64,000 bases of DNA from Naegleria gruberi (GCA_000004985.1 GG738845.1); one strand, 5' to 3'. Positions 1,169-28,596 are shown, counted from the stretch's first letter. Notes: generated from the letters alone by a model not told the origin. Numbers and translations: made by a program.

Positions 1169-4100
1169 TTATTGCTGGTTGTTAGGAATTACTGAGCCAA
1201 TATCGTCATCATCATTGAATTCATCATCTTCTTCCATAGTCTTTCTTCTACAAACCATACCTTCCTCACTTTGCTTGAAGCCTTTTTTGTATTCCTTTAA
1301 AGTTTCAGACACTGGTTTGGAGCTCTTAAACTTCTTGTGACCATCAACATTAATATCTTTAGACATGAGTGGTTTCATTGCTGTTTGAAGACTGTTAAAT
1401 AATTGAGGATAAATTAATTCTTGATTAGCTAAGAGTGTCTTGACACGAGCTCTTTCTTTTGGTATTTCAAAACAGGCTGGGCAATTTTCATTAATGACAG
1501 GCAAACCACTTTCCCATGCGAACTTTTTGGTTTCTGTCTCTCTCACATAGATAAGTGGACGAATAACACGTAAATCTCCAACATCAATAGTATAGTGAGC
1601 CTTCATAGTTCTCATAAATCCGTTGTGGAAAATAGACATGATAAAACTTTCAGCTAAATCATCAAGATGTTGACCAAGTACAAGTACATTATAACCTTCT
1701 CTTCTGGCAGTATTGTACAAAATACCTCTTTTCATTCTGGCGCACCAAGCACAAATTGAAGAAGCATCACATTCTTTTGCGCCTTCAATAACAGATTGGG
1801 ATTCATAGAAATATGGAACTCCTAATTGTTTACAATAGTTAATTAATGGGGAAGGGTCATAGCTTGCAGTTTGAGGATCAACTGTACAAGCACCAAATTC
1901 AAAATTGATACCCAAGTTGCTATATTGCAATGCATGTAAAACATGGAGTAATGTTAGAGAATCTTTACCACCAGACAAACCAAGTAATAATCTATCACCT
2001 TCTTTAATCATATCAAACTCACGAATGGCTTTCTTGACAGGTGCCATAATTGACTTGGCATCAACTCTTGGCCACATCTTGTAGTGATTTTTCAAAATTT
2101 CTCTTCGTTTCTTTTCATCATCAACATCTCCCGTAATCTTATCGAAAACCTTTCCATCCAATTTTGGTCTCTTTGGAATATATTTCTTGGAAGCCTCTTG
2201 TTGTTTCCAGTCACCTTCAATTAAATCCTCTTCAATGCATGGCATGTCTAGGATAGAAGATTCAACCAAAGGAGTTACAGAAATAGGTTCAACAATAGGT
2301 GGTTGTGAATCATTTTCAACATTTTCAACAGGTATGATTTCAGAATTAAGTGTTGATTGTATCAAAGAGCTTGTCAATTTGGTATTATTACTTTCATTTG
2401 AGACAAGATTAGAAACATTAAAACCAGTCCATGGATTAAGAATTGATTGTTTGTAAATTTTTGTAATATCACCACCTTGTAATTCTTCAACAATTTGCTT
2501 TGGAAAAACAAACCATCTCCATTTTTCAGCATGATCAATTTGTTCATCCTTTGTTGGGAGATTTTCCTTATTAATAATACTATTTTCTTTCAGCAGGTTT
2601 GTGTTTGGTTTGTTGAGAAGAAGTAAATCTTGATCTACAATTCTATACTTTGGATTTGAGAATTCCTTTACAGCTTGTTCAGCAGACTCTTCAGCTTGTT
2701 TCAGATATGTATCATATTCTTTCTTTGGTGAACTAATCTTATATCCAATTTCTTGTCTATATTCAAGTTTACCATTTTTGTAAGAAATATTTTGTAACCA
2801 TCTTCTTGTTGGAAATTTTCTGTTATTATTATGAATCCATTCGCCTGATTCTGGATAAAAGTAATAATATGGCAAAAACTTGTAGCCATTTTCAGCAACA
2901 AATTTTACGGATTTAACAATATATTGGAATGTATCTTCATCCATAAAATAATTAAAGTTCAAACGAACAAAACCAGGTCTCAAAAACTCATAATCATCAT
3001 CTGATAAAAGTACATTTTCCAAACTCTTAGCATCGTTATATTTGAGACCAAAGAGGAAATGAGAAAATGGACCAGCACATGCACAACCAGATCTAGTTTG
3101 GATGCCAAACAAATCATTCAATAAAATTGAAACAAATGTAGATGGAAGGAAGGAGTTATGGTGTCTTACTAGGAAGCTGAATATTGGTAAACGAGGAGTG
3201 TTCTCATTGTGGCCAAGAATTACCAAATTTCTTGTTGACTTGAAGGATTCAAAAGCACGTTCAGTGAAATTAGTCTCAATTTGTGAAATCAATTGAGTGC
3301 CAACAGCCTGACGAAGTTGGAAAATAAGACCACATCTGACTGATCCTAAAATTTCAGGAGTACCACCTTCTTCTCTTTCATAAGACTTTTTAACATAATG
3401 ATGGTCTCTGTCAGTAACAAAGAATACAGTTCCACCGCCTGGGTTTTCAGGAATCTTATTTTTAAAGAGATGTTTTTTAGCAACAAGTACTCCTGGTGTA
3501 CCTGGACCTCCAATGAATTTGTGAGGACTAAACACAAGAGCATCCTTATAACAGAGAGCTCTTTCCTCGAGAGGAATCTCCTCTGCAACCTTACCAAAAG
3601 TGTGATCTAAATTCTCTGTAGAAACACCTCTTGGATTCATATCTATTTTAACATAAGGAGCTGCACAAGCATAATCCCAAACTACATATCCACCATATTT
3701 GTGAATTAAAATTGAGATCTTGTTAACATTTGGTTCAAGAACACCAGTCACATTTGATGCTGCAGAGAAAACACCAATAAGCATTCTCTTTCCGTTATTA
3801 TAATATTTTAACTTGTTTTCCAAATCCTCAAGATCAGCAACTTCATTTCTAGTTGGGCTAGAATCATTTGATGGTAAATAGAGTTTGATTGGAACAATGT
3901 GACAGCAGGATTCTCTCCAAGGAAGAATATTTGAATGGTGTTCAGCTGGACCAACAAAAACTACAGGTTGTACCTCATCAATTTCTTCACTTGATTCAAT
4001 ACTATAATAATTGTCATAAAATCCATTATTTGATTGCAAATTTTGTAAATTAGATGATAATTTCTTTTTGCTTTGTTGTTGAGAAGAAATGGTAAATTCT

Positions 4101-4746
4101 CTTTCCCATTTTCTTCTTTCCATTTTCATACTAGTTTCACCACCTCTTTCTAAACCCAAAAGATGTACTAATTTGTTAACAGCACTTGTTGAACCACTTC
4201 CACTAAATATTAAAACATCCTTTTTACCACAATTCAATGCATTTCTAATAATATAACGTGATTCATGTCTAAAAAGAGTACTTTGAAGACCAGTAATTGA
4301 ACTTGTTGTGTGTGTATTGGCATACATGGTCATTACTTGTTTCTTCATAAAATCTTCTAAAAAGTTGAGAGATCTACCTGAGGCAGTGTAATCACAATAG
4401 GTTATTTTTCTATAACCAAAAGGTGATTTAAAAACTTCATCATCTCCAATAATTGAATCATGAATAGTTTGTATGAGAGCAGACTTTTCCTTTACTAGAG
4501 ATTCATTATCTAAAATTTAATCAGATAAATTATAATGACTAGATTCAATAGATAATACATACCTGTTAAACTAGCTTCCTCTTCAGTATCGTTTGTTGCA
4601 CTTCTACCACCTGCTTGTTCGTGGTAAGAAACACGGAAGAAGGCTCTTGAACGTTTGGCAATAACAGATTCCTCTTCTTCTAAACCAACATGTTCACTAA
4701 CTGTCGGGATGTTATGGTTGCTATCACCACTATTATCTGTAATCAT
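1169..4746 (-). CDS. two-domain fusion protein: N-terminal class-V aminotransferase / NifS-like (MOCOS-type) cysteine-desulfurase domain plus C-terminal TtcA-type PP-loop tRNA 2-thiocytidine synthetase domain. Two exons: complement(join(1169..4509,4563..4746)), about 1174 aa
   Basis: Exon 1 (4746..4563) encodes MITDNSGDS...GGRSATNDTEEEASLT. A 53-bp GTATGT..TTTAG intron (4510..4562) joins it in frame to the 1059-codon ORF, giving ...ITYCDYTASGRSL... (the YLDxAA(T/S) class-V start). The PLP-lysine motif is VFSPHKFIGGPGTPGVL. The active-site cysteine sits in IQTRSGCACAGPF (compare MOCOS RTGCFCN). After a low-complexity linker the C-terminus matches E. coli TtcA along its length: GDRLLLGLSGGKDSLTLL (PP-loop), INFEFGACTVD, CAWCARMKRGILY (TtcA CSLCSRLRRGILY), GQHLDDLAESFIMSIFHNG (GHHRDDILQTLFLNMFYGG), IRPLIYVRETE (IRPLAYCREKD), NCPAC. 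Confidence 0.8.
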
Positions 4747-4895: not shown

Positions 4896-6315
4896 CTATT
4901 CCTTTAATTTAAGATATAGAGAATGCAATAATCTGGACTTTCTTAAAAGTGGTTCAGTCTCCAAATATAAAATTACATCTTGAGGTGTTATTACAATTGA
5001 TGATGGTCGTTTTCCAAGTTGTGACGAGTCATCATCAAACTCTTGCCCGTTGTTTTGTTTTGTAGAGTTGGTTACATTGCTTGCAGAAGGAGTTTTTTTA
5101 AGGGTCGAAGATGTCTTATTTGATTGACTCAAATTTGCGATTGAGGATTTCTTTCCAAGTGCAACGTCAATAGCAACATTCATATCAGACATTTTTTGTT
5201 CTTCATCCTCTTTTGAACTTTGATTTCTCTTTCTCTTTCCTTCTGATGATCCAGATTGTTTTTTTCGTTGGGCTTCTTTGGAGCGTTCCTCTTCCTCTCT
5301 TCTTTGTTCATCCTCTTGTAAAATTTTTTGTTTGATTTTCAATTCTCTATTTACCAAAGAATAATTACTATTTGAAGTAATCTCAATAAAGGAGGTATTA
5401 TCACTGGCATTAATTGGGGTATCCATTCTTGTTTTTGAGTTTAATACTAATTCCTCAACTATTGATCTCATTCTATCCTGAACTGCCAATGAAATAAATT
5501 CAACTAGAGCATCACTCACGGTAGGCTTCAATTGTTGAGTTTTAAGAATACGATTAATCTTATTTCGTAAATTGGTAGAATTGAGAAAAGAAACCTCTGG
5601 TTGAAATCTACTAGAATAATATGAGTGCACTTCATCATCATTGGCAAAAGGATGAACAGGAGTTTCTGGTTGTTGTTGATCCTCTACTTTTTTCTTTTTT
5701 GATGGAGGTTGTGTTGGAATAACTTGTGATGGTGTTGATTGTGGTTGTAATGGAGGAGGGATTGATGATTGTGGAGGTTGTGTGACTCCCATACTACCAC
5801 CGTCAGCTTTAGAATTTTTAATTGATTGAAGTTTCTGTATGCAAAGTATTGAATGAATTGGTATTAAATTCTTTAATTAAACTTACCTTAAGTAACTCTC
5901 TTGCTTGTGGATTATTTGCAACAAAATTCTTTCTATCTTCTGCGGTCATTGTTTTCATGCTTTTAAACATTATTTGTTCCTCTTCAGTAAAAGGGGTTGG
6001 TGTTTGTGACGGTATTTGTATAGGTTGAGAAGTTTGTGAAGGATTTGGTAGTACTCTAGTTTGTTGTTGTTGTATTAATGTAGATGATGTTGGTATTTGT
6101 ATAGGTTGAGAAGGTTGTAACGGAGTAATAGAAGTAAATCTGTCTTTGATATCCTTTATTCTCTCCGTTAGAGCTCTTACATCTATGAGTCCTGTAATAA
6201 ATTCATCCTTTGCTTTTTGAAGTAAAAGTCTTCCTTCCGGGAGAAGAAGCAGGTTCAATTGCTGTACTTTTTGCTCCAACTTGAGAATGACTGTTTGATT
6301 AAGTTGTGTTGACAT
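4896..6315 (-). CDS. TAF4: TAF4-like TFIID subunit (histone-fold/CCTD region). Two exons: complement(join(4896..5834,5887..6315)), about 455 aa
   Basis: ORFs 5818..6315 and 4896..5792 are joined by a 52-bp intron (5835..5886, GTAAGT..ACAG) in phase 0, giving ...ARELLK|KLQSIKNSKADGGSMGVTQPP.... The C-terminal region SFLNSTNLRNKINRILKTQQLKPTVSDALVEFISLAVQDRMRSIVEEL resembles the TAF4 histone-fold segment (human FLLQAPLQRRILEIGKKHGITELHPDVVSYVSHATQQRLQNLVEKI). The extreme C-terminus PSSIVITPQDVILYLETEPLLRKSRLLHSLYLKLKE matches human TAF4 RQRITRVNLRDLIFCLENERETSHSLLLYKAFLK. This rests on recall of the human sequence; I did not run a search. Confidence 0.6.
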
Positions 6316-7943: not shown

Positions 7944-10900
7944 TTATTTTCTTCTTGTAAAACATCTCAATTTGGAAACAATTTTTTCCAAATTTTCAAA
8001 GAAAGTGCGCAAATTTTTTGCTCTAAGGTCATATTCTGTAATTCCTTCCAATAACAATTGGAAACCTTTTGCAATATCTTGAGAGTGATTTGGTTCATTC
8101 ATTAAAACTCCTTCAACAGCAATTCTGAAACTATTTTGATCCCACAAAATGAGGCCGTAGAGAGTATCACTAATGTTGTGCAAAAGTTCAATATCGAAAA
8201 CTTCATACAGCAACATGTTCACACTTTCCCTTATTAACATTCCTACAAACGATTGATCTTGTTGGTTAAAAGATAAAGGATATTTAGCCCTATGCGAACT
8301 TAATGAATGAATGGCATCAAAACTGTCTTGTGCAATATCAAGCTCGAAACTAGAATTATGTGTCACAAATTGGAAAATTTAAATTACTTACTGCCTAATA
8401 CCAAAAACGAGAGAGTTAATGAAATGATTGAATAATTGATTTGGTAATAAAGCAACCTTCTCAGGATACATTTCCATCATGAAACCAATAAGTTTAAAAT
8501 ATTGTTTGCGAAGAGGGGTGAAATCCAACAGCTCAATAGTTATAAGAGGCAACATTAAATGAATTCCTTGGAAAACATAATTCACAATGGTATTTTGGGT
8601 ATTTTCATCATTTTTGACATGAACCTCAGCAGAAAATACTCCTACACTATCAAAATCAGAAAAGTCTAAAAAGTCTTTCGATATCATAAATGTTAAGGTT
8701 TTCAAAAGAATTAATAAGTCCTTATACTGTTCTTCTTCAGAAAGGTCATCAAGGGCGTTTCTTCTCTTTGAATTTGCATTAACGGATTTTTTAGCATTCT
8801 GTTGTACAAAGGATTGAATCATTATGAGACAAGTGTGGAAAAGAGATTTGCATTGATTTTTTGTTATATGTGGAATGAATGACTTGACACAATTTTTGAA
8901 AACTCTTAGAATTAGAGTGACAAATTGCTCGTGAAGGTGGTATTGATTTAAAAGTTTGATAAGATTAATAAGGATTTTTTCTGATTCAAAAAATGAAAGC
9001 ATAATTTCAGCAACATCTGAATTTGTTGAACCTTTGGCTATTCCTAAAAATTTCTCAAAACAATAATCCAATTGTTCCATGATTTGAGGTTGTTGATATA
9101 CTTCTGTAAAATCACTTCTGGAAAGTATTGAATTGAACTGATCTCTGAGAGGTGTTAAAATTACTTTTAGAACTTGATGTAACTCTTCAAAATCTTTCTT
9201 GTCTTGTATCTTTTTGATAAAAGATGCACAACAGGATGTAATACATTGAGTTAGTTTGCCTTTGATTGAGTTTGAAGCTTTCTGTAGGGTATGATAGGTA
9301 TTATAATCATTCTTTACCATTTCTACGAAAGTATTAGTTCTGATAAGACATTTTTGGATAGATTTTTTTCTTGACATTGTCATGAATAATCTAATTGATT
9401 CTAGACATGTTTCGTGCTCACTTGACCAGTGTACAAGGTTATGAGAAATTTTTTGTAGCAGATAATCCACAATTTTCACACCGTTTTCTGATTGCTCCCC
9501 GTACATATGTATAATTGATTTGCTAATACTCTCAGTATGGTGAGATATTTCAGGCATCAAATATGATTGTGCCCATCTCCAAAAGAACCACATTAAAATT
9601 TTTGCAATTCTAGGACTAAGCATTTGTGGACTCTTGGAAAGGCAAAGAAGTTCAAATTGAGAAAACTTAATTATAGAGTTAATAAAGTTAAAGAAAACAT
9701 TATCTGAAGATCCATCTGTTAAATCTACGATCTCTAATGGGAGTGTAGGTGCTTCACCTTCTACATGATCAGCAACTGTATAACCTCCAATTTCTATAAT
9801 CCATTCAAAATCTTCCCACAAACCATCCAATTGTCTGTTTTGTGAATTTTGGCCAAATAGGTTTTGTAAGAGGGAAAATCTGGTAGAAAATTTGTGGTAT
9901 AAAAGTTGTAGAGATGGTTCTGCTAGTTGTCTACCTAGAACACCAATAGCATTCAATTGTTCATCAACAACTGACTCTTCATTTTCATATTCATCATCTT
10001 CAATATCGGATGGTGGTCTCTGCTCTGGAACTTTGAGATCAACATAACTCTTGTAAATTTCAAAGCAACATTGTCTAACTAAATCTGATCCCTTCATATC
10101 TAAGTATAAACCTGATGGTGAATGACGAGCTGATGTTAGGGATTCACAAATCAAGCTCCAACATTCAAGAAGAGTGGTCAAACTATCCAAAATAAATTGA
10201 TCATTAAATTTGGATGATATTTCAATTGTTCTTATGGTAGCTTTTGTAAGATGTTGAATTATTTCCATAAATTGTGCTTGGTTTAAATGATAGTAAATTT
10301 CTATGAATGTTGAAAATTTAAAATTAGTAAATAATCGATAAATACACTGAGAACAATCATAAATTTCCTGTCCACAAATTAATGAAAATTCCAATGATGT
10401 AACATTAGAAAGAGCACTAAATATGATTAAATATATCAATATTAAGTTTTACAAACCTATTCATTAATGAAAAAATACTTGACAAAAGTCCAATAAAAAA
10501 ATTCAATTTAGAATTTCTATCTGTAAAACAGTCGATTGAAATATTGCACCACTGAGTTAAACAAAGTCGTACTTGATGTGTAATTCTAATAAAAAGTTCA
10601 GCGTCCAAAGCATTTTGATTAGAAGATGTAATAACAAGGCCTTGGCGAAATTTTTGATGGAATTGAATTAAAAGTGTTAAGATATCAGTATTAGAAAATC
10701 TTTCCTTCCATTCCTTGGATGATGGAGAGATTTTGCCTTGTTCTAGGAACGCAGAACCAGAACCACCTCCACTGCTAGCATACTTATTTTTGTAAATTTT
10801 AGTAGAAATAATAGTCTTCAATGAACTCATTTCATTAAATGGAGAAAAATCCCAACAAAGAACCTCACGTATCAGTTGAAGAGCATTGACTGACATTTTT

Positions 10901-11781
10901 AACAGTTCTGAAATTTCATTTGTAACAACTCCACAAAATATTGATTCATCCTGGATGGAGAGAGTTCTTTTTAAAATGTCGCAACCCAATACAAAACAAT
11001 TGGATAAAAAATCTTGTTGGAACATTACTCGAGATTTTTCATGAAATTCCCAATTCATTCCAATTTCAGATGATGATCCTCCAAGAGAAAATTCAGTAAT
11101 TAAATTCAGTAATAATTGAAGAGCTAAATTTTGGGACATTTGTTGTACCTGTGGTGAATCTTGGCTAAGAAGTTGTTGAATATGAGTAAATGTCATTTCT
11201 CTAAATTGTTTTCCTCCATTATTTTCATCAATCCAAGATCTTTTTTGAATAATTGAGTAACCTTGTAATAATTGATTAATTATTTGTTGTAAAATAGAAG
11301 GAGGTTGAATTGAACCAGCACCAGAACTGATAGAAGATGGAACATTTCCTCCCAAAACAACAGAGGCAATAAATTCAAATAAATATTGACTCAAGTTTAG
11401 TTTCATACTAACATCCAAAACATTCCATTCTTGAACAATAGATTTCTTGATGATATTTGAAGCAAAAAACTTTGTTACTACACTATATTGTGGTCCCTCT
11501 ATGAAATTATTAATAACAAATATATTTAAAATTATAATGATGATTACGGAATAAAAACGTACCAAGAATATGTCTACAAAAATCGTATGGTTGTGGTTGG
11601 TTTTGACAATGTTGAATAAAAGCTTCATACTCCTTTCGTTTCCTATTATCAGCAACCTGAAATAAAAATTGATGAATAACTATTTTCTTCTCTCAACACT
11701 TACGATATTCAAGTTTGAACAAGCTTCCTCTAGCTTTTGACCCAAATCATCGAAGGGTTGAAGAGGTTTTTGTGGTTCCAT
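7944..11781 (-). CDS. XPO4: exportin-4 / exportin-7 family nuclear export receptor (importin-beta superfamily, HEAT-repeat). Five exons: complement(join(7944..8349,8392..10416,10457..11498,11563..11656,11704..11781)), about 1214 aa
   Basis: Three large reverse-strand ORFs are linked by short introns with frames preserved: intron 1 is 11657..11703 (47 bp), intron 2 is 11499..11562 (64 bp), intron 3 is 10417..10456 (40 bp, GTTTGT donor) and intron 4 is 8350..8391 (42 bp). The N-terminus MEPQKPLQPFDDLGQKLEEACSNLNI|VADNRKRKEYEAFIQHCQNQPQPYDFCRHILE|GPQYSVVTKFFASNIIKKSIVQEW resembles the exportin-4 N-terminus (..[47 protein letters not shown]). The product is all-alpha and about 1200 aa. Family assignment is moderate. 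Exact junctions 3 and 4 are the only frame-compatible GT-AG choices I could find. Confidence 0.55.
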
Positions 11782-18318: not shown

Positions 18319-21300
18319 TTACATGTCGGGCGATTGTGCTGTTGAGGAAGAAGGTGACGAGGCTTGTTTGGAGATTGTAGTGGCAGTATTGTCGATTTGT
18401 TGGAGAGAAGTAAACTGGGAGTTTAAACTGGAACTTTGATGAAGATAAGGCATTGGAGGAGAATTAGAAGTAATATAAGTAGGATTAAGGTCAGCAGTGT
18501 TTTCATGGTTATCCATTCTTGTACTTTGCTCACCAGAAAACACTCGTTTTTGGAGAGTTATATGATCAAGAAACTTTTGCTGCTCTTTTAGTTTCCAATC
18601 AGACCTGAGAGAGTCAGTTGGATCCCACAATGAGGACACCCAACCTACTGAATATGGATTTGTAGTTGAAGGTCTATTTTCTTCTTCTCTTGTTTTTTCT
18701 GCCTTTGGCGTGTAGAACCTTTGTTCTGTGGTTGAGCTAGGAACGCTCTTCGTGTCTATGTCATCATAGATTGAGAAATCTTCTTGCATTTCAATATTCT
18801 CTTTTCTCAGGTTTGTTCTTGAGGTTGACCTTCTTGGGGGTGTTATTTGATCAACATCTTGCTCTTTCTCTCCGACTGAGGTCAAATCCATAAACTTTAA
18901 TTGTTCATTAAGAGTCATCTCTGCTTTTCTTATTCGTTCTGAAATAGCAGATATCTCTGCCTTCTCTGATCCTATTTGTTTTCTTGATTTTGTTATTTCT
19001 AATCGTTCCAATTCTAACATCTTCCTTTGATCTTGAAGTTGTTTTTCAAGAGATTTAAGATTCTTTTTTTCTGCAAGATAATTTCTATTGAGGGCTTCTG
19101 CTTCATCTCTCATTTTCTCTGTTTCTGCTTTTTCTTTCATCACTTCTTGGTACTTGAGAGTGACTTGCTCACTATCGGATTGTACTTGGATCAACCTTTG
19201 GGCTAAATGTTCATGCTGTTGATAGAAGGTTTCTTTTTCCTTAATAAGCACAGATTTCAATTCTTCAACATCTCTCCTTTCTCTATCAATGAGATCTCTC
19301 ATTTCTTTAATAAGTCTTCTTTCTTCCTCCAAGCTCTTCTTTTCAGAATTCACTTGGGATTCTCTTTCGAATAGTTCTTTCATTCTTGATGTGTGTTCAA
19401 TTCTGGCAGATTCACGTTCGGCTAATGCTTCTTTTTGTAGTCTTGACAACTTTGAACGTTCTTCTTGAGTATCCACAATAAACTGTTGCCTCTCTACAAT
19501 GAATCTAGCTTTATCTTCATCTAGTCTTTCTCTCATTTCATAAATTTCTCGCATCTTGGTTTCAAATTCTTTTTCATAGTTTTTCTTTTTTTCTTCTAAC
19601 TCTCGTTCCTTCTTTAGGGTTTGTAGTCTTTCATCTTCATAGTTCTTTTGAATCGATTTCATATTCGTTTCCATCTCTACGTATAGAACTTGAATTCTAG
19701 ATCTCTCGGTGGCCAATTCTTCCTTTTGTTTTTGATGGGATTTTTCAGTCTCGGAAATAAGTCTCTCTCTAACTACAAGGTGATCTTCTTTTTGTTTGAA
19801 GACTTTCATTTGATCCTCGTAGAGTCTATGGTGAAGAGTTTCTACTGAGTGAGCATTCACTTCTATTTTCTTAATGAGATCATTTAAAGATGATTCTACT
19901 TGAATGTTTTTCATCTTTTTATCGTATTCCTCCTTCAATATTCTTTTATGCTCCTCAACTTCCTCTTTTTGTCTTTGCTGGATGGCCATCTTTTCCATTT
20001 CATGAAGTTTATGAATCTGATCAATTTCCATTTGATTTCTTCTTTTCAAGTTTTCCATCTCGGTGGATATTGTTAAATCAGCTCTCTCTTTTTCTCTGAG
20101 TAATCTGGATGTAAATCCCTCTGAATCCTCTTGGATTTTCAGTTCTTTTTGTCTTACTTCTTCTTTTAACTGTTCAATTTTGAGATGAGATTTCTGAATT
20201 GTTGTTTCAAACTCTATTCTAACATTATTAACTGTTGCCTGTTTCTCTTGCTCGAAATTTAACTTCATCCTATGTATCATTTCTTCATGCTCTTGTTTTA
20301 ATTCATTGACAATATTTTTTTCTTTCAACTCGTATTCAAGTTGTTTTTTTGCATGTTCTTTGAGTTGAATTTCTTGTTGTTGGATGGTTTTTTGAAGGTC
20401 ATCTATTTGGGAAATCAACTTTGACCGTTCTTCTAGGAACTCTTGTTTTAATTCCATTTTTAGTAATCCAGAAATGTTTTCCAAATCTTCTTTTACCAAG
20501 CTCCGTTGTACAACATGTGGTGGATTGTCTATCCTTTTTGGAGAAGGAATTGGAAGTGATTTTTGGCGTGGAGAGGATGAAAGATCAGATAGTTTGATTG
20601 GTGATGAAGTCTTGTTGGAGGATGTATTTGAAGGTTGTTGTTGAATCTTGGTACTTTGTCTACTTTTAGGCACTTCCTCAGGATCAAGATAACTCAGCGA
20701 TTTTCTCCCATGTTCCTCCATTGGATCTGCAAAGTCAAAATCATCATCAAAAACTTCTTCCTCCTCAACAGTTTCTTCCATATGACCATCCTCAAAGTCA
20801 GTAAAGTTCTCTAGGTCTGTATCTTCAGCCCTAGGTTGCTCAATAGATCCTCTAAACGAATCATCAAAATCACTTTCAATAAAGTCCTCATCTTCTATTA
20901 TTTCCTCTTCAAAATCATTATTTTGTTTCTTTTGTCTGTTGTCACGTTCTCTTTTTTCTTTTTCTTCTCTTTCTCTCCTTTCCCTTATTTCTCTTTCTTT
21001 TCTCTCTTTTTCTTCACGTTCTCGTCTCTCTTTTTCGAGTCTTTCCTTTTCTTCTCGTTGCTTTTTTTCTTTAACTTCATTTTCTTCTCGTTGCTTTCTC
21101 TCCCTCTCTTCCCTTTCAATTTTTTCTTTTCTATCTCTTTCAATTTTTTCTTTTTCCTTCCTCTCTCTTTCCTTTTGCTCAAATTCTTCCCTTTCTCGTC
21201 TCTCCTGTTCCCTTTGTTTCCTTTCTCTTTCTTCTCTTTCCATTTTTTCTTTTCTATCTTGTTCTAATCTTTCTCTTTCTTGACGTTCCCTATCTTCTCT

Positions 21301-22197
21301 ATCTCTCCTCTCCTGATCTTCCCTCTGTTTTCTCTCTCTTTCTTCTCTTTCAATCTTTTCTTGCTCCCTTTCTTTTCTTTCCTTTTCCTCTTTTTCTTTG
21401 ATTTTCAAAATCTCTTTTTCTTGTTCTTCCATTAACTGATCATCATCAAAGTCGAAATCGTCCTCAATAGAAGATGGAGATTTTGATTTCTTTTTAGTTT
21501 TTTTCTCATTCTTAAAATCAGGAACAGTAAATCCAGAGGGCCTTTTGCTTGAGTTGGGTCGTTTTGATCTTGCAAAATCAAATGAGTAAGCATCTTGTTT
21601 ATCATTTTTTGGTGAAGGGGCTTTCTTCTTGTCCTTCTTTTTTGTTTCTTTTTTGGTTACCGGGTTGAAATCATCCAGGCCAAGCATTTCTCCAACTTCG
21701 TCATCATCAATATCTGAAAACTATCAAAATTATGATTAATACTCTTACAACAAAAAATAACATACACCAGATGTAGAAACATTCTCATCAGTATTTTCTG
21801 TATTGGTATTGGAATTTTTCTTTCCAAATAGATCCACATTAATCTTTGTTAATGATCCAGATGAGCTGGATGATGCATTACTTTTGGAAGATTTGTTTGA
21901 ATTTTTCCTAGAAACTTGATCTGAACTATTTTTCTTTCCTAATAAACCTCCAACAGATGTTAGATCATTTGTACTTTCCGATTCATCTTCACTGGCTGAG
22001 TCCCTTGTTGCTGAAAAGACTTCTCCAAAATCATTACTTCCAAGTATCATGTTAGATTTTCTTGTGTTGGTTGTATTTTTCTTGAATTTTGATCCAAGAT
22101 TAAAACCAAAATTAAAGTCATTGCTATCGTTAGACCCAGAGGAACTAATGGATGAACGTGATGATTTTCCTCTTGGCAGAGATGTCAATCCACTCAT
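18319..22197 (-). CDS. large coiled-coil protein with N-terminal S/N-rich region and an (E/R/K)-rich repeat block; function unknown. Two exons: complement(join(18319..21720,21766..22197)), about 1277 aa
   Basis: A 1122-codon ORF plus an upstream exon are joined by a 45-bp GTATGT..GATAG intron (21721..21765) in phase 0, giving ...NVSTSG|FSDIDDDEVGEMLGLDDF.... The real ATG is at 22197 (KKMSGLTS); the track's earlier M at 22230 is a TTG. The central region has repeats of EKIEREERERKQRE. A long heptad-like region (LKEHAKKQLEYELKEK...) predicts coiled coil. I recognise no family. Confidence 0.55.
20940..21420. repeat. about 480-bp strand-asymmetric polypyrimidine (plus) / polypurine (minus) low-complexity tract with imperfect internal tandem repeats; it encodes the E/R/K repeat block of the coiled-coil protein
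   Basis: The plus strand is almost only C and T (for example cttctcgttgcttt twice, ttcaattttttctttt twice). The minus-strand codons are GAA, AGA, AAG and GAG, giving EKIEREERERKQRE units. Confidence 0.7.
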
Positions 22198-28546: not shown

Positions 28547-28596
28547 NNNNNNNNNNNNNNNNNNNNNNNNNNNNNNNNNNNNNNNNNNNNNNNNNN
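28547..28596. other. assembly gap (50 N placeholder) inside the CFAP57 coding region
   Basis: A run of exactly 50 N. The flanking reading frame is open into the gap, and the sequence after the gap is non-coding. Confidence 0.99.

Follow-up and report, generated by a model that had tools for sequence, protein, structure and literature searches.

A gene of Naegleria gruberi joining a predicted SufS/CsdA-like cysteine desulfurase to a TtcA-like domain: a protist member of a eukaryotic fusion family

In the literature up to 2020, 2-thiocytidine (s2C) was assigned to Archaea and Bacteria only (PMC7694415). For TtcA of E. coli a mechanism with sulfide bound to a [4Fe-4S] cluster has been proposed: C122 and C125 are essential cluster ligands, and of the second CxxC pair the first cysteine is dispensable and the last one (Cys222) essential (PMC4081106). 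A fused gene was described in Aplysia and other molluscs, together with s2C32 in eukaryotic tRNA. In Aplysia, tRNA-Lys(UUU) carries s2C32, the fused protein is the sole TtcA homologue, and a single transcript is supported by RNA-seq; the link between fusion and modification is correlative (bioRxiv 10.64898/2026.09.27.754811). The same preprint named the N-terminal domain 'IscS' and, on aligning it with IscS, could not match the catalytic cysteine of the latter.

Judged from its sequence, the gene of Naegleria gruberi analysed here is a protist instance of this already known eukaryotic fusion. A preliminary description had regarded the architecture as undescribed. This does not hold: apart from the preprint, among the 120 best database homologues at least 119 have the pair PF00266 and PF01171, and some fused homologues are already labelled 'tRNA 2-thiocytidine biosynthesis protein TtcA' or 'ttcA'. 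Its statement that s2C is not established in eukaryotes agreed with the literature up to 2020 and is now overtaken by the report on Aplysia. New are the assignment of Cys539, the linker of ~115 aa, the apparently eukaryote-specific and monophyletic family, and the unlinked bacterial relatives of the two halves.

One gene with two predicted catalytic modules

The window, i.e., the whole stretch of 64,000 nucleotides that was analysed, is nuclear DNA of N. gruberi, with actual sequence in positions 1-29,880 and N in the remainder. At this locus, one nuclear gene lies in a eukaryotic chromosome; its features are as follows (window coordinates; residue numbers of the 1174-aa product):

1169..4348, minus strand: uninterrupted 1059-codon ORF
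4563..4746, minus strand: exon 1, start codon at 4746; 61 codons and the first base of split codon 62
4510..4562, minus strand: spliceosomal intron, 53 nt, GTATGT...TTTTAG, GT..AG, phase 1
1169..4509, minus strand: exon 2, remaining coding sequence of the 1174-aa product; stop codon 1169-1171
2441..4468, minus strand: N-module, aa ~76-752, supported by Pfam, PDB sequence matches, Foldseek and bacterial homologues
4399-4370, minus strand: YCDYTASGRS, aa 99-108
3529-3491, minus strand: SPHKFIGGPGTPG, aa 389-401
3518..3520, minus strand: codon of Lys392, predicted PLP Schiff-base lysine (SPHK)
3097-3068, minus strand: TRSGCACAGP, aa 533-542
3077..3085, minus strand: codons of Cys537-Ala538-Cys539 in RSGCACAGP
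2498..2521, minus strand: RWFVFPKQ (family consensus RWF[LV]xPSEA), aa 726-733, marking the end of the N-module
2087..2437, minus strand: variable linker, aa ~753-869, predicted disordered
1358..2086, minus strand: TtcA-like PP-loop ATP-pyrophosphatase domain of the 'NCPAC' subfamily, aa ~870-1112
1958..1975, minus strand: PP-loop SGGKDS, aa 907-912, predicted to serve ATP binding and adenylation
1753-1715, minus strand: CAWCARMKRGILY, aa 981-993
1742..1753, minus strand: Cys981-x-x-Cys984 (CAWC), two predicted [4Fe-4S] ligands, 99 % conserved
aa 1007-1025: GQHLDDLAESFIMSIFHNG
aa 1044-1054: IRPLIYVRETE
1486-1472, minus strand: NCPAC, aa 1070-1074
1472..1483, minus strand: Cys1071-x-x-Cys1074 (CPAC), both cysteines invariant, Cys1074 the predicted third cluster ligand
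1172..1357, minus strand: C-terminal tail, aa ~1113-1174, acidic, little conserved, predicted disordered

The spliced model of 3525 nt is in frame and yields 1174 aa; the public N. gruberi gene model differs with 886 aa. The intron is required, because the conserved residues 63-115, which contain FGYRKITYCDYTASGRS, lie upstream of the first ATG of the ORF and would otherwise be without an in-frame start codon. A TAA stop is located 4 codons upstream of the intron acceptor. Exon 1 and the junction residues TDNE are retained in the N. lovaniensis protein P0001, including SVIAKRSRAFFRVSYHEQAGG of exon 1. The product of exon 1 is an acidic, weakly conserved N-terminus in which a targeting peptide is not apparent.

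At the actual base composition, stop codons occur with a frequency of 0.074 per codon and the chance of an open frame of 1059 codons is P~3e-36. The inter-module stretch of aa 676-870 would be open by chance with P~3e-7 and the linker with P~1e-4; the linker frame is open because it is coding. The claim of one gene for both domains was confirmed, the frame being uninterrupted between the modules. The neighbouring genes at the locus are eukaryotic (TAF4, Brr2, a syntaxin and a TTLL) and codon usage is uniform, with RSCU correlations of r 0.80-0.93 for all three gene segments against neighbouring ORFs. Together with the spliceosomal intron, these observations bear out the earlier view of a gene resident in the eukaryote rather than a contaminant.

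Pfam placed Aminotran_5 (1e-27) N-terminal of ATP_bind_3 (3e-17) as predicted, and all motifs quoted earlier were located at the expected positions. Since Pfam gave only these two domains, a MOSC domain is absent. Acceptor domains of the SufE/SufU/CsdE type and TusA-type carriers were not found in the polypeptide by Pfam, NCBIfam and a survey of conserved cysteines, nor were SufU/IscU/SufBCD-like scaffold domains by Pfam and NCBIfam. Only six cysteines are conserved family-wide, none of them outside the two catalytic modules. Between the modules, a low-complexity linker of ~280 aa had been proposed. A linker is indeed present, with low occupancy and low identity in the alignment of fused homologues and a pLDDT of 33-40, but its length was overestimated: conservation runs on to ~aa 675, an ordered conserved island with RWFVFPKQ lies at aa ~722-752, and the truly variable part comprises ~115 aa (aa ~755-870).

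Relationships of the two modules

Sequence and structure prediction identify the N-module as a putative complete SufS/CsdA-like (group II) PLP cysteine desulfurase. With a profile of the N-module, scores were 110 bits for E. coli SufS, 73 for CsdA, 30-48 for MOCOS and 18 for IscS. The PDB sequence matches were solved SufS/CsdB structures, and the top 50 structural matches in Foldseek were all SufS, with target-normalised TM values of 0.81-0.86. The pLDDT was mostly >85; two insertions of the Naegleria lineage (aa ~176-245 and ~351-375) had low confidence. Identity to SufS/CsdA group II enzymes amounts to ~18-25 % only, and the NCBIfam scores stayed below the cut-offs for TIGR01979 (100 bits versus 475), the SufS equivalog (58 versus 661) and CsdA (32 versus 607); a weak SclA match was also obtained. 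The glutamine of SufS contacting PLP-O3' (DGAQ) is replaced (DYAC/A), hence the module is not a canonical SufS. These comparisons characterise the N-module as a separate bacterial-type family within the group II fold. A ~190-aa family-specific C-terminal extension carries the RWF motif, in which conservation of R726, W727, F728 and P731 is 97 % or higher; RWFVFPKQ was modelled with a pLDDT of ~90, and L001-L004, homologues from bacteria, also have the RWF motif close to their C-termini.

Lys392 aligns with the PLP lysine of SufS and is invariant in 120/120 fused homologues. The sequence RSGCACAGP aligns gaplessly with RAGHHCAQP and RTGHHCAMP as an R-x-G-x-x-C-A-x-P loop of the short group II type. 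In this alignment the second cysteine of the CxC pair, Cys539, coincides with the catalytic cysteine of SufS (RAGHHCAQP) and is the predicted persulfide-forming residue, while Cys537 stands where E. coli SufS has His362. Both cysteines are invariant in the fused homologues (n=120), as are the HH motif, D340, R534, R572 and R577 in the family.

The module had previously been termed MOCOS-type. The shared R-x-G-C-x-C motif stands, with RTGCFCN in all seven authentic MOCOS sequences and RSGCACA in Naegleria, but the closer affinity is to SufS (110 bits versus 30-48). MOCOS matches carry PF03476 and PF03473. Membership in MOCOS/ABA3 was rejected, as MOSC_N and MOSC are missing and the N-domain is nearer to SufS and CsdA. 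Likewise, an identity as group I enzyme (IscS/NifS/NFS1 type) was dismissed on the profile scores of 18 bits for IscS versus 110 for SufS.

The C-domain is TtcA-like by sequence, short of a certified TtcA equivalog. NCBIfam scores were 190 bits for TtcA, 64 for TilS_N, 50 for TtuA and 33 for NcsA, and TtcA was the top PP-loop model by about threefold for each family member tested. The 190 bits are below the equivalog cut-off of 272 bits (NF007972). Other fused members reached 197-226 bits, bacterial proteins of the NCPAC type 208-213 and the E. coli control 514; the entire 'NCPAC' subfamily, bacterial members included, is below this cut-off. Directly compared, the C-domain and E. coli TtcA share 33 % identity over 261 aa (E=8e-42), and the alignment matches the PP-loop as well as both CxxC pairs. 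SGGKDS is invariant in 120/120 homologues and matches SGGKDS of E. coli TtcA. Cys981 and Cys984 align with C122 and C125 of E. coli TtcA and with the cluster cysteines of TtuA, Cys1071 and Cys1074 with C210 and C213 in the translation of E. coli TtcA used here (219 and 222 in PMC4081106). The three cysteines expected to hold a [4Fe-4S] cluster, C981, C984 and C1074, thus align with those essential in E. coli, in agreement with the preliminary description, and Cys1071 corresponds to the dispensable one. The pLDDT was mostly 85-95. The earlier preference for TtcA over Ncs6/Ctu1 was supported as well. An Ncs6/Ctu1/NcsA identity was discarded with 33 bits for NcsA versus a cut-off of 500; the PDB match to NcsA (E=1.5e-8) was weaker than that to TtuA and far weaker than the direct comparison with E. 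coli TtcA.

Distribution and origin of the fusion

Fused homologues were found in Heterolobosea, oomycetes, a ciliate and many invertebrates. Besides N. lovaniensis, Willaertia, Acrasis and Percolomonas, more than 100 further eukaryotes have the same fused ORF, transcriptome assemblies included; EukProt TRINITY entries, derived from transcriptomes of other protists, contain complete ORFs with both domains. Homology of the Naegleria protein to animal members extends over the full length (E~1e-226 to 1e-248), and the PLP lysine, CxC, SGGKDS, CxxC and CPAC are 99-100 % conserved in 120 sequences. Some lineages carry extra thioredoxin-like or rhodanese domains, additions that fit persulfide chemistry. 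The N-modules of the fused proteins form one clade (support 83/100), the two halves have evolved in concert (Mantel r=0.91), and all fusions observed were on eukaryotic DNA. From these sequence data the fused family appears to be eukaryote-specific and monophyletic.

The N-module is equivalent to a whole bacterial stand-alone protein: L001-L004 span the full module with 46-47 % identity on conserved columns, the extension and the RWF/RWY motif included. Another stand-alone homologue of this half is an alphaproteobacterial type. The TtcA domain is 50-52 % identical to the bacterial stand-alone protein P0249, which has likewise the motifs CAFC...NCPACF. Within 10 kb of the bacterial N-module homologues, TtcA was matched in none of 80 loci, and the neighbours of P0249 are housekeeping genes. 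The closest bacterial relatives of the N-module adjoin an Lrp/AsnC regulator and are unlinked to ttcA, which suggests amino-acid catabolism as its ancestral role. Two genes of bacterial type, unlinked in bacteria, seem to have been fused once, in a eukaryote.

Proposed sulfur transfer and comparison with known systems

The protein probably (about 70 %) combines two enzyme activities and thiolates RNA with sulfur that it provides itself, with s2C32 in tRNA as the probable product; this reading draws on sequence and on analogy to characterised enzymes. The notion of a self-sufficient sulfur relay in the preliminary description is reasonable, given a putative persulfide-forming PLP domain joined to a TtcA-like domain. 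By homology, L-cysteine would bind to PLP on Lys392, Cys539 would take over the sulfur as persulfide, and alanine would leave. The persulfide sulfur may then pass to the free iron of the [4Fe-4S] cluster held by Cys981, Cys984 and Cys1074, either directly or via the adjacent invariant Cys537; a built-in carrier domain of the SufE/TusA type is absent, because the family has no other conserved cysteine. Following the biochemistry of E. coli TtcA, the SGGKDS PP-loop with ATP would adenylate the C2 oxygen of the target cytidine, and the cluster-bound sulfide would displace AMP to form 2-thiocytidine. The likeliest target would be C32 in one or more cytosolic tRNAs. The flexible linker of ~115 aa may tether the modules and bypass the general mitochondrial NFS1-based relay.

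Several observations speak against parts of this scheme. Group II desulfurases usually need a SufE/SufU/CsdE acceptor, which the polypeptide does not contain; the DGAQ glutamine of SufS is replaced; and the nearest bacterial N-module relatives are unlinked to ttcA. The missed TtcA equivalog cut-off (190 versus 272 bits) stands against s2C32 itself, as substrate or position could differ.

It is unlikely, yet the most probable among the alternatives, that the same architecture serves another target and the NCPAC domain thiolates a nucleoside other than C32, be it at another tRNA position, a uridine or in another RNA. The subfamily is only ~33 % identical to E. coli TtcA and under the equivalog cut-off, the related PP-loop enzymes TtuA and NcsA perform the same chemistry on U54 and U34, and even Aplysia modifies, in tRNA-Lys UUU, another substrate than E. 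coli; however, TtcA was the leading model in each member tested, and Aplysia has s2C32 with no other TtcA homologue found. There is a slim chance that the desulfurase module mainly builds or repairs the oxygen-labile [4Fe-4S] cluster of the TtcA domain, or supplies sulfide indirectly, and does not itself pass on the sulfur atom that enters the RNA. Fe-S assembly is the task of SufS-type enzymes, the cluster of TtcA is sensitive to oxygen and decays to [2Fe-2S] (PMC4081106), and a carrier cysteine between the modules is not conserved. Against this role, the polypeptide has no SufU/IscU/SufBCD-like scaffold domain, and stoichiometric sulfur delivery in each turnover better explains the strict 1:1 fusion across eukaryotes. 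Cluster repair and sulfur delivery are not mutually exclusive. Very improbable is a different PLP lyase, e.g., a selenocysteine lyase or another C-S/C-Se lyase, so that the enzyme would install something else than sulfur from cysteine: SufS/CsdB are also selenocysteine lyases, the SclA match and the replaced DGAQ glutamine would agree with it, as would the amino-acid-catabolism-like context of the bacterial relatives, but the catalytic cysteine, PLP lysine, HH motif and carboxylate-binding arginine are invariant in a SufS-like fold, and the Aplysia product is a thio-nucleoside, not a seleno-nucleoside. An artefact, i.e., two adjacent genes, an assembly chimera or bacterial contamination, is effectively refuted despite the differing public model, by the open inter-module stretch, the eukaryotic flanking genes, intron and codon usage, and the recurrence of the fused ORF in other Heterolobosea and beyond.

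The proposed self-supplying RNA thiolase shares features with several known systems. With E. coli TtcA served by IscS/IscU, the Naegleria domain has the PP-loop, three [4Fe-4S] cysteines and co-linear blocks in common, and in both cases the sulfur would ultimately originate from cysteine. E. coli TtcA is a stand-alone protein whose sulfur comes from a group I desulfurase with a gene elsewhere in the genome, whereas the Naegleria domain is fused to a predicted group II enzyme and belongs to the separate 'NCPAC' subfamily. The bacterial relatives of its two halves are encoded in separate, non-neighbouring genes. SufS and CsdA, which act with SufE, SufU or CsdE, share fold, PLP lysine, HH motif and the short catalytic loop with the N-module; unlike them, the latter has GCxC instead of GHHC, the ~190-aa extension and no SufE/SufU partner domain. 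The molybdenum cofactor sulfurases MOCOS/ABA3 follow the same design logic, a NifS-like persulfide-forming domain fused to a sulfur acceptor, and have the motif R-T/S-G-C-x-C in common with Naegleria, but their acceptor is a MOSC/Moco-binding domain in place of a PP-loop/Fe-S RNA thiolase. The Ncs6/Ctu1-Ctu2-Urm1 system of the eukaryotic cytosol (s2U34) and the archaeal NcsA/TtuA likewise use a PP-loop for [4Fe-4S]-dependent pyrimidine 2-thiolation; their sulfur donor is a ubiquitin-like thiocarboxylate, that of Naegleria would be the fused desulfurase.

Closest is 'IscS-TtcA' of Aplysia californica (LOC101861551), in which, as in the Naegleria protein, a CsdA/SufS-like domain precedes a TtcA-like one. 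The two proteins have in common the PLP lysine, the CxC pair, SGGKDS, CxxC...CPAC and a weakly conserved linker, and the Naegleria protein is ~40 % identical to molluscan members (e.g., Lottia P0066, E~1e-231). In Naegleria, a protist of the Discoba, the linker is shorter and the N-module has lineage-specific insertions. In contrast to the 'IscS' label of the preprint, the N-module here is classified from its sequence as SufS-type, with Cys539 as the probable homologue of the catalytic cysteine of SufS.

Gene model and genomic setting

The coding parts of the fusion gene, which lies on the minus strand at 1169-4746, were obtained from an ORF scan and a spliced model.

Features of the fusion gene (window coordinates)
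1169..4348, minus strand: uninterrupted ORF of 1059 codons, from the ORF scan
4562..4510, minus strand: intron of 53 nt with GTATGT donor and TTTTAG acceptor, whose removal joins the exons in phase
4746 (ATG) up to the GTATGT donor, minus strand: exon 1 of 61 codons, from the spliced model
2498-2521, minus strand: RWF[LV]xPSEA motif (aa 726-733), strongly conserved and confidently ordered between variable flanks

Upstream of the ORF the frame remains open to 4509, at the TTTTAG acceptor, and a TAA stop follows four codons beyond; this open stretch encodes conserved residues including FGYRKITYCDYTASGRS, without an in-frame start codon. The spliced CDS has 3525 nt and encodes 1174 aa. All eight motifs quoted in the preliminary description were located in their places. 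Given the base composition of the window's real sequence, the chance of an open frame of 1059 codons is about 3e-36 and that of the inter-module stretch remaining open about 3e-7. Real sequence is present at positions 1-29,880 only; the 3' end (29881-64000, 34,120 bases) is N, as is a further assembly gap of 50 bases at 28547-28596, together 53% of the window. Composition statistics were computed on N-free sequence, as whole-window values mislead with Ns included.

Naegleria proteins were the top database matches. The public N. gruberi 'predicted protein' (P0002, 886 aa) is identical to the 1174-aa model wherever aligned, begins at an internal Met without the N-terminus and treats three in-frame segments as introns. 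Since N. lovaniensis and another Naegleria-like sequence keep these segments, the public entry is truncated, with too much spliced out. The Naegleria alignment thus speaks for the longer model proposed at the outset, which should supersede the public one in the genome annotation.

The neighbouring genes are core eukaryotic ones, coding for TAF4, an exportin-7-like protein, Brr2/SNRNP200, a syntaxin, a tubulin-tyrosine-ligase-like and an EML-like WD40 protein. Codon usage (RSCU) correlated with that of the other ORFs of the window with r=0.93 for the N-module, 0.80 for the linker and 0.87 for the TtcA part; GC3 of these three segments was 0.20-0.26 compared to 0.26 in the other ORFs. Eukaryotic neighbours and matching codon usage bear out the claim of a host-resident gene and leave practically no room for contamination or a chimeric assembly. 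The TAF4-family ORF is located upstream at 4896-5792 (minus strand); a Q/P-rich ORF of 165 aa at 5818-6315, 25 nt away on the same strand, may be its upstream exon. Two long minus-strand ORFs were without Pfam match, 18322-21720 (1133 aa) and 10420-11679 (420 aa); the latter adjoins the exportin-7-like ORF at 8391-10448, possibly as part of one gene with it. tRNA genes, as candidate C32 substrates, were not found within the window.

Identity and boundaries of the two halves

Pfam assigned Aminotran_5 to the N-module (aa ~76-752) and ATP_bind_3 to the C-terminal domain (aa ~870-1112), as had been anticipated for this product. For the N-module, the NCBIfam models of SufS and CsdA scored best, all well under the cut-offs, and SufS/CsdB enzymes were the nearest solved structures by sequence. 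The alignment to these placed Lys392 on the PLP lysine and AEHHSNILPW on the EHHANIVPW of SufS. The segment RSGCACAGP aligned gap-free to RAGHHCAQP of SufS, therefore Cys539 of the CxC pair Cys537/Cys539 corresponds to the catalytic cysteine of SufS; by this alignment it is the likely persulfide cysteine, on a short loop of group-II type. An AlphaFold2 model, for which 50 family members were used, showed high confidence for the N-module; its pTM of 0.69 is a hint of a defined inter-domain arrangement, not evidence for it. The 50 best Foldseek matches in the PDB were all SufS-type desulfurases, each covered nearly whole, with TM-scores normalised to the target of 0.81-0.86.

The preliminary description had called this half MOCOS-type. 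A profile of the N-module of the fused family was scored against seven source-named MOCOS proteins, retrieved with a fragment that served as bait only, and against three E. coli desulfurases: SufS reached 110 bits, CsdA 73 bits, the MOCOS sequences 30-48 bits and IscS 18 bits. The active-site resemblance stands, since a motif like that of the protein, RTGCFCN, is present in all seven MOCOS sequences, but the whole module is nearer to SufS. On these profile scores the N-module is SufS/CsdA-like overall, not IscS-like, in disagreement with the preprint on the fused Aplysia protein (bioRxiv 10.64898/2026.09.27.754811), which names the N-terminal domain IscS.

The extent of the N-half was mapped on an alignment of 120 fused homologues. 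Conservation extends to aa ~675, returns as an island at aa ~722-752 and gives way to variable sequence from aa ~755 to ~870; in the AlphaFold2 model the island has a pLDDT of ~90, residues ~759-845 one of 33-40. The closest bacterial homologues (L001-L004), from metagenome-assembled genomes of Sandaracinaceae, Planctomycetota, Crocinitomicaceae and Bacteroidia, comprise the entire extended module and end soon after an RWF/RWY motif, thus the N-half corresponds to a complete bacterial protein. Conservation, pLDDT and bacterial homologues together reduce the linker, initially put at ~280 aa, to a variable stretch of only ~115 aa. The RWF[LV]xPSEA motif, also found near the C-terminus of the long bacterial proteins, is a candidate for docking, dimerisation or capping of the active site.

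In the C-terminal domain, NCBIfam yielded 190 bits for TtcA versus 64 for TilS_N, 50 for TtuA and 33 for NcsA, which upholds the proposed placement with TtcA rather than with the Ncs6/Ctu1 type. The alignment to E. coli TtcA covered 261 residues with 33% identity (E=8e-42), with SGGKDS and both CxxC motifs in register. In the E. coli enzyme three cysteines, the two of the first CxxC and the final one of the second CxxC, are essential as ligands of a [4Fe-4S] cluster; the free iron of this cluster was proposed to hold the sulfur for attack on the adenylated cytidine (PMC4081106). Cys46, 200, 219 and 222 in the numbering of Bouvier et al. (PMC4081106) correspond to residues 45, 191, 210 and 213 of RefSeq E. 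coli TtcA (L081:6014-6949, minus strand), mapped by order and motif, while Cys122/Cys125 agree in both. By alignment, Cys981, Cys984 and Cys1074 are the predicted cluster ligands in Naegleria; in TtuA PH0300, the nearest solved structure, the cluster ligands occupy the same alignment positions. The equivalog cut-off of the NCBIfam TtcA model is 272 bits, a value reached by E. coli TtcA (514) and not by the Naegleria domain, other fused members (197-226) or the closest bacterial stand-alone relatives (208-213). They therefore represent a TtcA-like sister subfamily, with the signature CA[FW]C...NCPACF, and not a certified equivalog.

Distribution and origin of the fusion

The fusion of both domains in one gene, the central observation of the preliminary description, was confirmed by the ORF, by Pfam and by the homologues, 119 of the 120 best of which contain both Pfam domains. 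Among these 120 are Heterolobosea (Naegleria, Willaertia, Acrasis, Percolomonas), oomycetes, the ciliate Blepharisma and many animals: sponges, cnidarians, hemichordates, amphioxus, echinoderms, molluscs, annelids, a nemertean, a brachiopod, tardigrades and several arthropods. A Cafeteria protein is another family member. Complete ORFs with both domains occur in transcriptome assemblies, and several homologues are auto-annotated already as TtcA or cysteine desulfurase. The sole top match with PF00266 alone, P0021 of Phytophthora cactorum, has 1995 aa, nearly double what is usual, and probably reflects a merging of gene models, not a different architecture.

The architecture is thus not undescribed, as had been presumed. 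In Aplysia, for which s2C32 is reported on tRNA-Lys(UUU), a fused protein of 1177 aa (LOC101861551) is the only TtcA homologue; it is conserved in 28 molluscs and RNA-seq supports a single transcript. Which cysteine is catalytic, how deep the distribution goes and whether the fusion arose once or in parallel were left open there (bioRxiv 10.64898/2026.09.27.754811). No other paper on the fusion or on Naegleria was found in the searchable library, where a search for Naegleria and TtcA returned primer-string matches only. Before this September 2026 preprint 2-thiocytidine was held absent from eukaryotes, a 2020 review assigning it to Archaea and Bacteria only (PMC7694415), and the earlier view of s2C as foreign to eukaryotes has been overtaken. 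The Naegleria protein is a new protist case of the recently described fusion.

Scanning one genome of each prokaryotic species with a profile yielded 520 or more relatives of the N-module. The 75 with a delimited ORF were all stand-alone genes, mostly of 470-555 aa. The long type (L001-L004) is 46-47% identical to the fused N-module, the common alphaproteobacterial type ~39% on conserved columns. This latter type (L005-L080), an uncharacterised class-V PLP enzyme family of ~470-500 aa with a GC[AS]CAGPY motif, is frequent among Rhodobacteraceae, Rhizobiales and Acetobacteraceae. At 61 of 75 of its loci an Lrp/AsnC regulator is transcribed divergently, and at 16 of 75 an FAD/NAD(P) oxidoreductase-like gene lies nearby (14 downstream on the same strand), a context that suggests amino-acid catabolism. 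TtcA-like or linker-like sequence was absent from all 80 prokaryotic N-module loci, scanned over +/-10 kb, and two long metagenomic contigs with fused genes proved eukaryotic; within this sample, a bacterial ancestor with the two genes fused or in one operon is rejected. In a neighbour-joining tree of 58 taxa with bootstrap, the fused eukaryotic N-modules formed one clade (83/100) grouping with the long bacterial type (100/100).

An exhaustive search of 1.84 billion representatives with the TtcA domain gave 392 matches at E<=1e-30. The top 150, each with 50% identity or more, consisted almost entirely of fused members or fragments and included only one clearly bacterial stand-alone protein, hence not a broad sample.

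Bacterial TtcA-like gene
L082:10001-10801, bacterial contig of 86.7 kb: P0249, 266-aa stand-alone TtcA-like protein of the NCPAC type

Its neighbours are housekeeping genes (gmk-rpoZ-spoT-recG, nusG, lipid-A acyltransferase); the lipid-A acyltransferase gene follows immediately and its start overlaps the end of P0249. The protein shares 50-52% identity and the NCPACF motif with the eukaryotic domains and, like these, falls under the NCBIfam TtcA cut-off, thus a distinct unnamed bacterial TtcA-like subfamily is indicated. In a tree rooted with E. coli TtcA, it split off immediately before the eukaryotic domains (59/100, a moderate value). The pairwise distances of the two halves were tightly correlated (Mantel r=0.91, 0/999 permutations), which fits one co-evolving unit, with shared species history also contributing. 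As a whole, these results speak for one fusion event in eukaryotes between two genes of bacterial type, provisionally so, as the trees are simple distance trees of limited samples.

Proposed sulfur path and relation to known systems

In the 120 fused proteins the PLP lysine, both CxC cysteines, SGGKDS and the four cysteines of the TtcA domain are 99-100% conserved, and no cysteine beyond these six is conserved throughout the family. This count and the Pfam and NCBIfam results, which show no further domain, led to the rejection of an additional sulfur-carrying cysteine or domain within the linker or the C-terminal extension; neither database revealed a SufE, SufU, TusA or rhodanese-type carrier built into the Naegleria polypeptide. 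Three other fused proteins, P0061, P0078 and P0083 (the last at locus L087:562-4023), possess an added thioredoxin/AhpC-like domain and P0097 an added rhodanese domain, which may supply reductant or an extra persulfide relay step. In the simplest reading, the persulfide sulfur of Cys539 would be handed straight to the cluster in the TtcA domain tethered to it, perhaps via Cys537. The best-supported explanation of the function is a relay that supplies its own sulfur for 2-thiolation of tRNA cytidine; we assign it a probability of roughly 0.7.

A wider scenario is tentative and, taken as a whole, has somewhat less than an even chance. An unlinked 'long' GCxC desulfurase of the Myxococcota, Planctomycetota and Bacteroidota type and an 'NCPAC' TtcA would have been joined once, very early in eukaryotes; the fusion would have been retained widely, in Discoba, stramenopiles, ciliates and many animals, and lost in the usual model organisms. 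The self-contained relay would bypass NFS1/Urm1, and s2C32 would be an ancient, widespread and overlooked modification of cytosolic tRNA. If so, Naegleria would be a free-living protist suited to testing it.

With the Naegleria gene the candidate enzyme appears not as a molluscan or animal oddity but as a deeply distributed eukaryotic protein. Added here are the SufS-type identity, the candidate catalytic cysteine, which the preprint could not name, the domain boundaries and the bacterial relatives of both halves; K392, C539 and C981 are testable residues, and the bacterial relatives offer a framework for dating the fusion. If active, the protein would add to cytosolic tRNA thiolation a third route with its own sulfur supply and would be, after MOCOS, another natural desulfurase hard-wired to its acceptor. 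From E. coli TtcA, with 514 bits on the NCBIfam model, the Naegleria domain is set apart by its 190 bits, under the cut-off of 272. With MOCOS the Naegleria fusion has in common the layout of a desulfurase-type domain joined to an acceptor, the motif being RTGCFCN in the former and RSGCACA in the latter.
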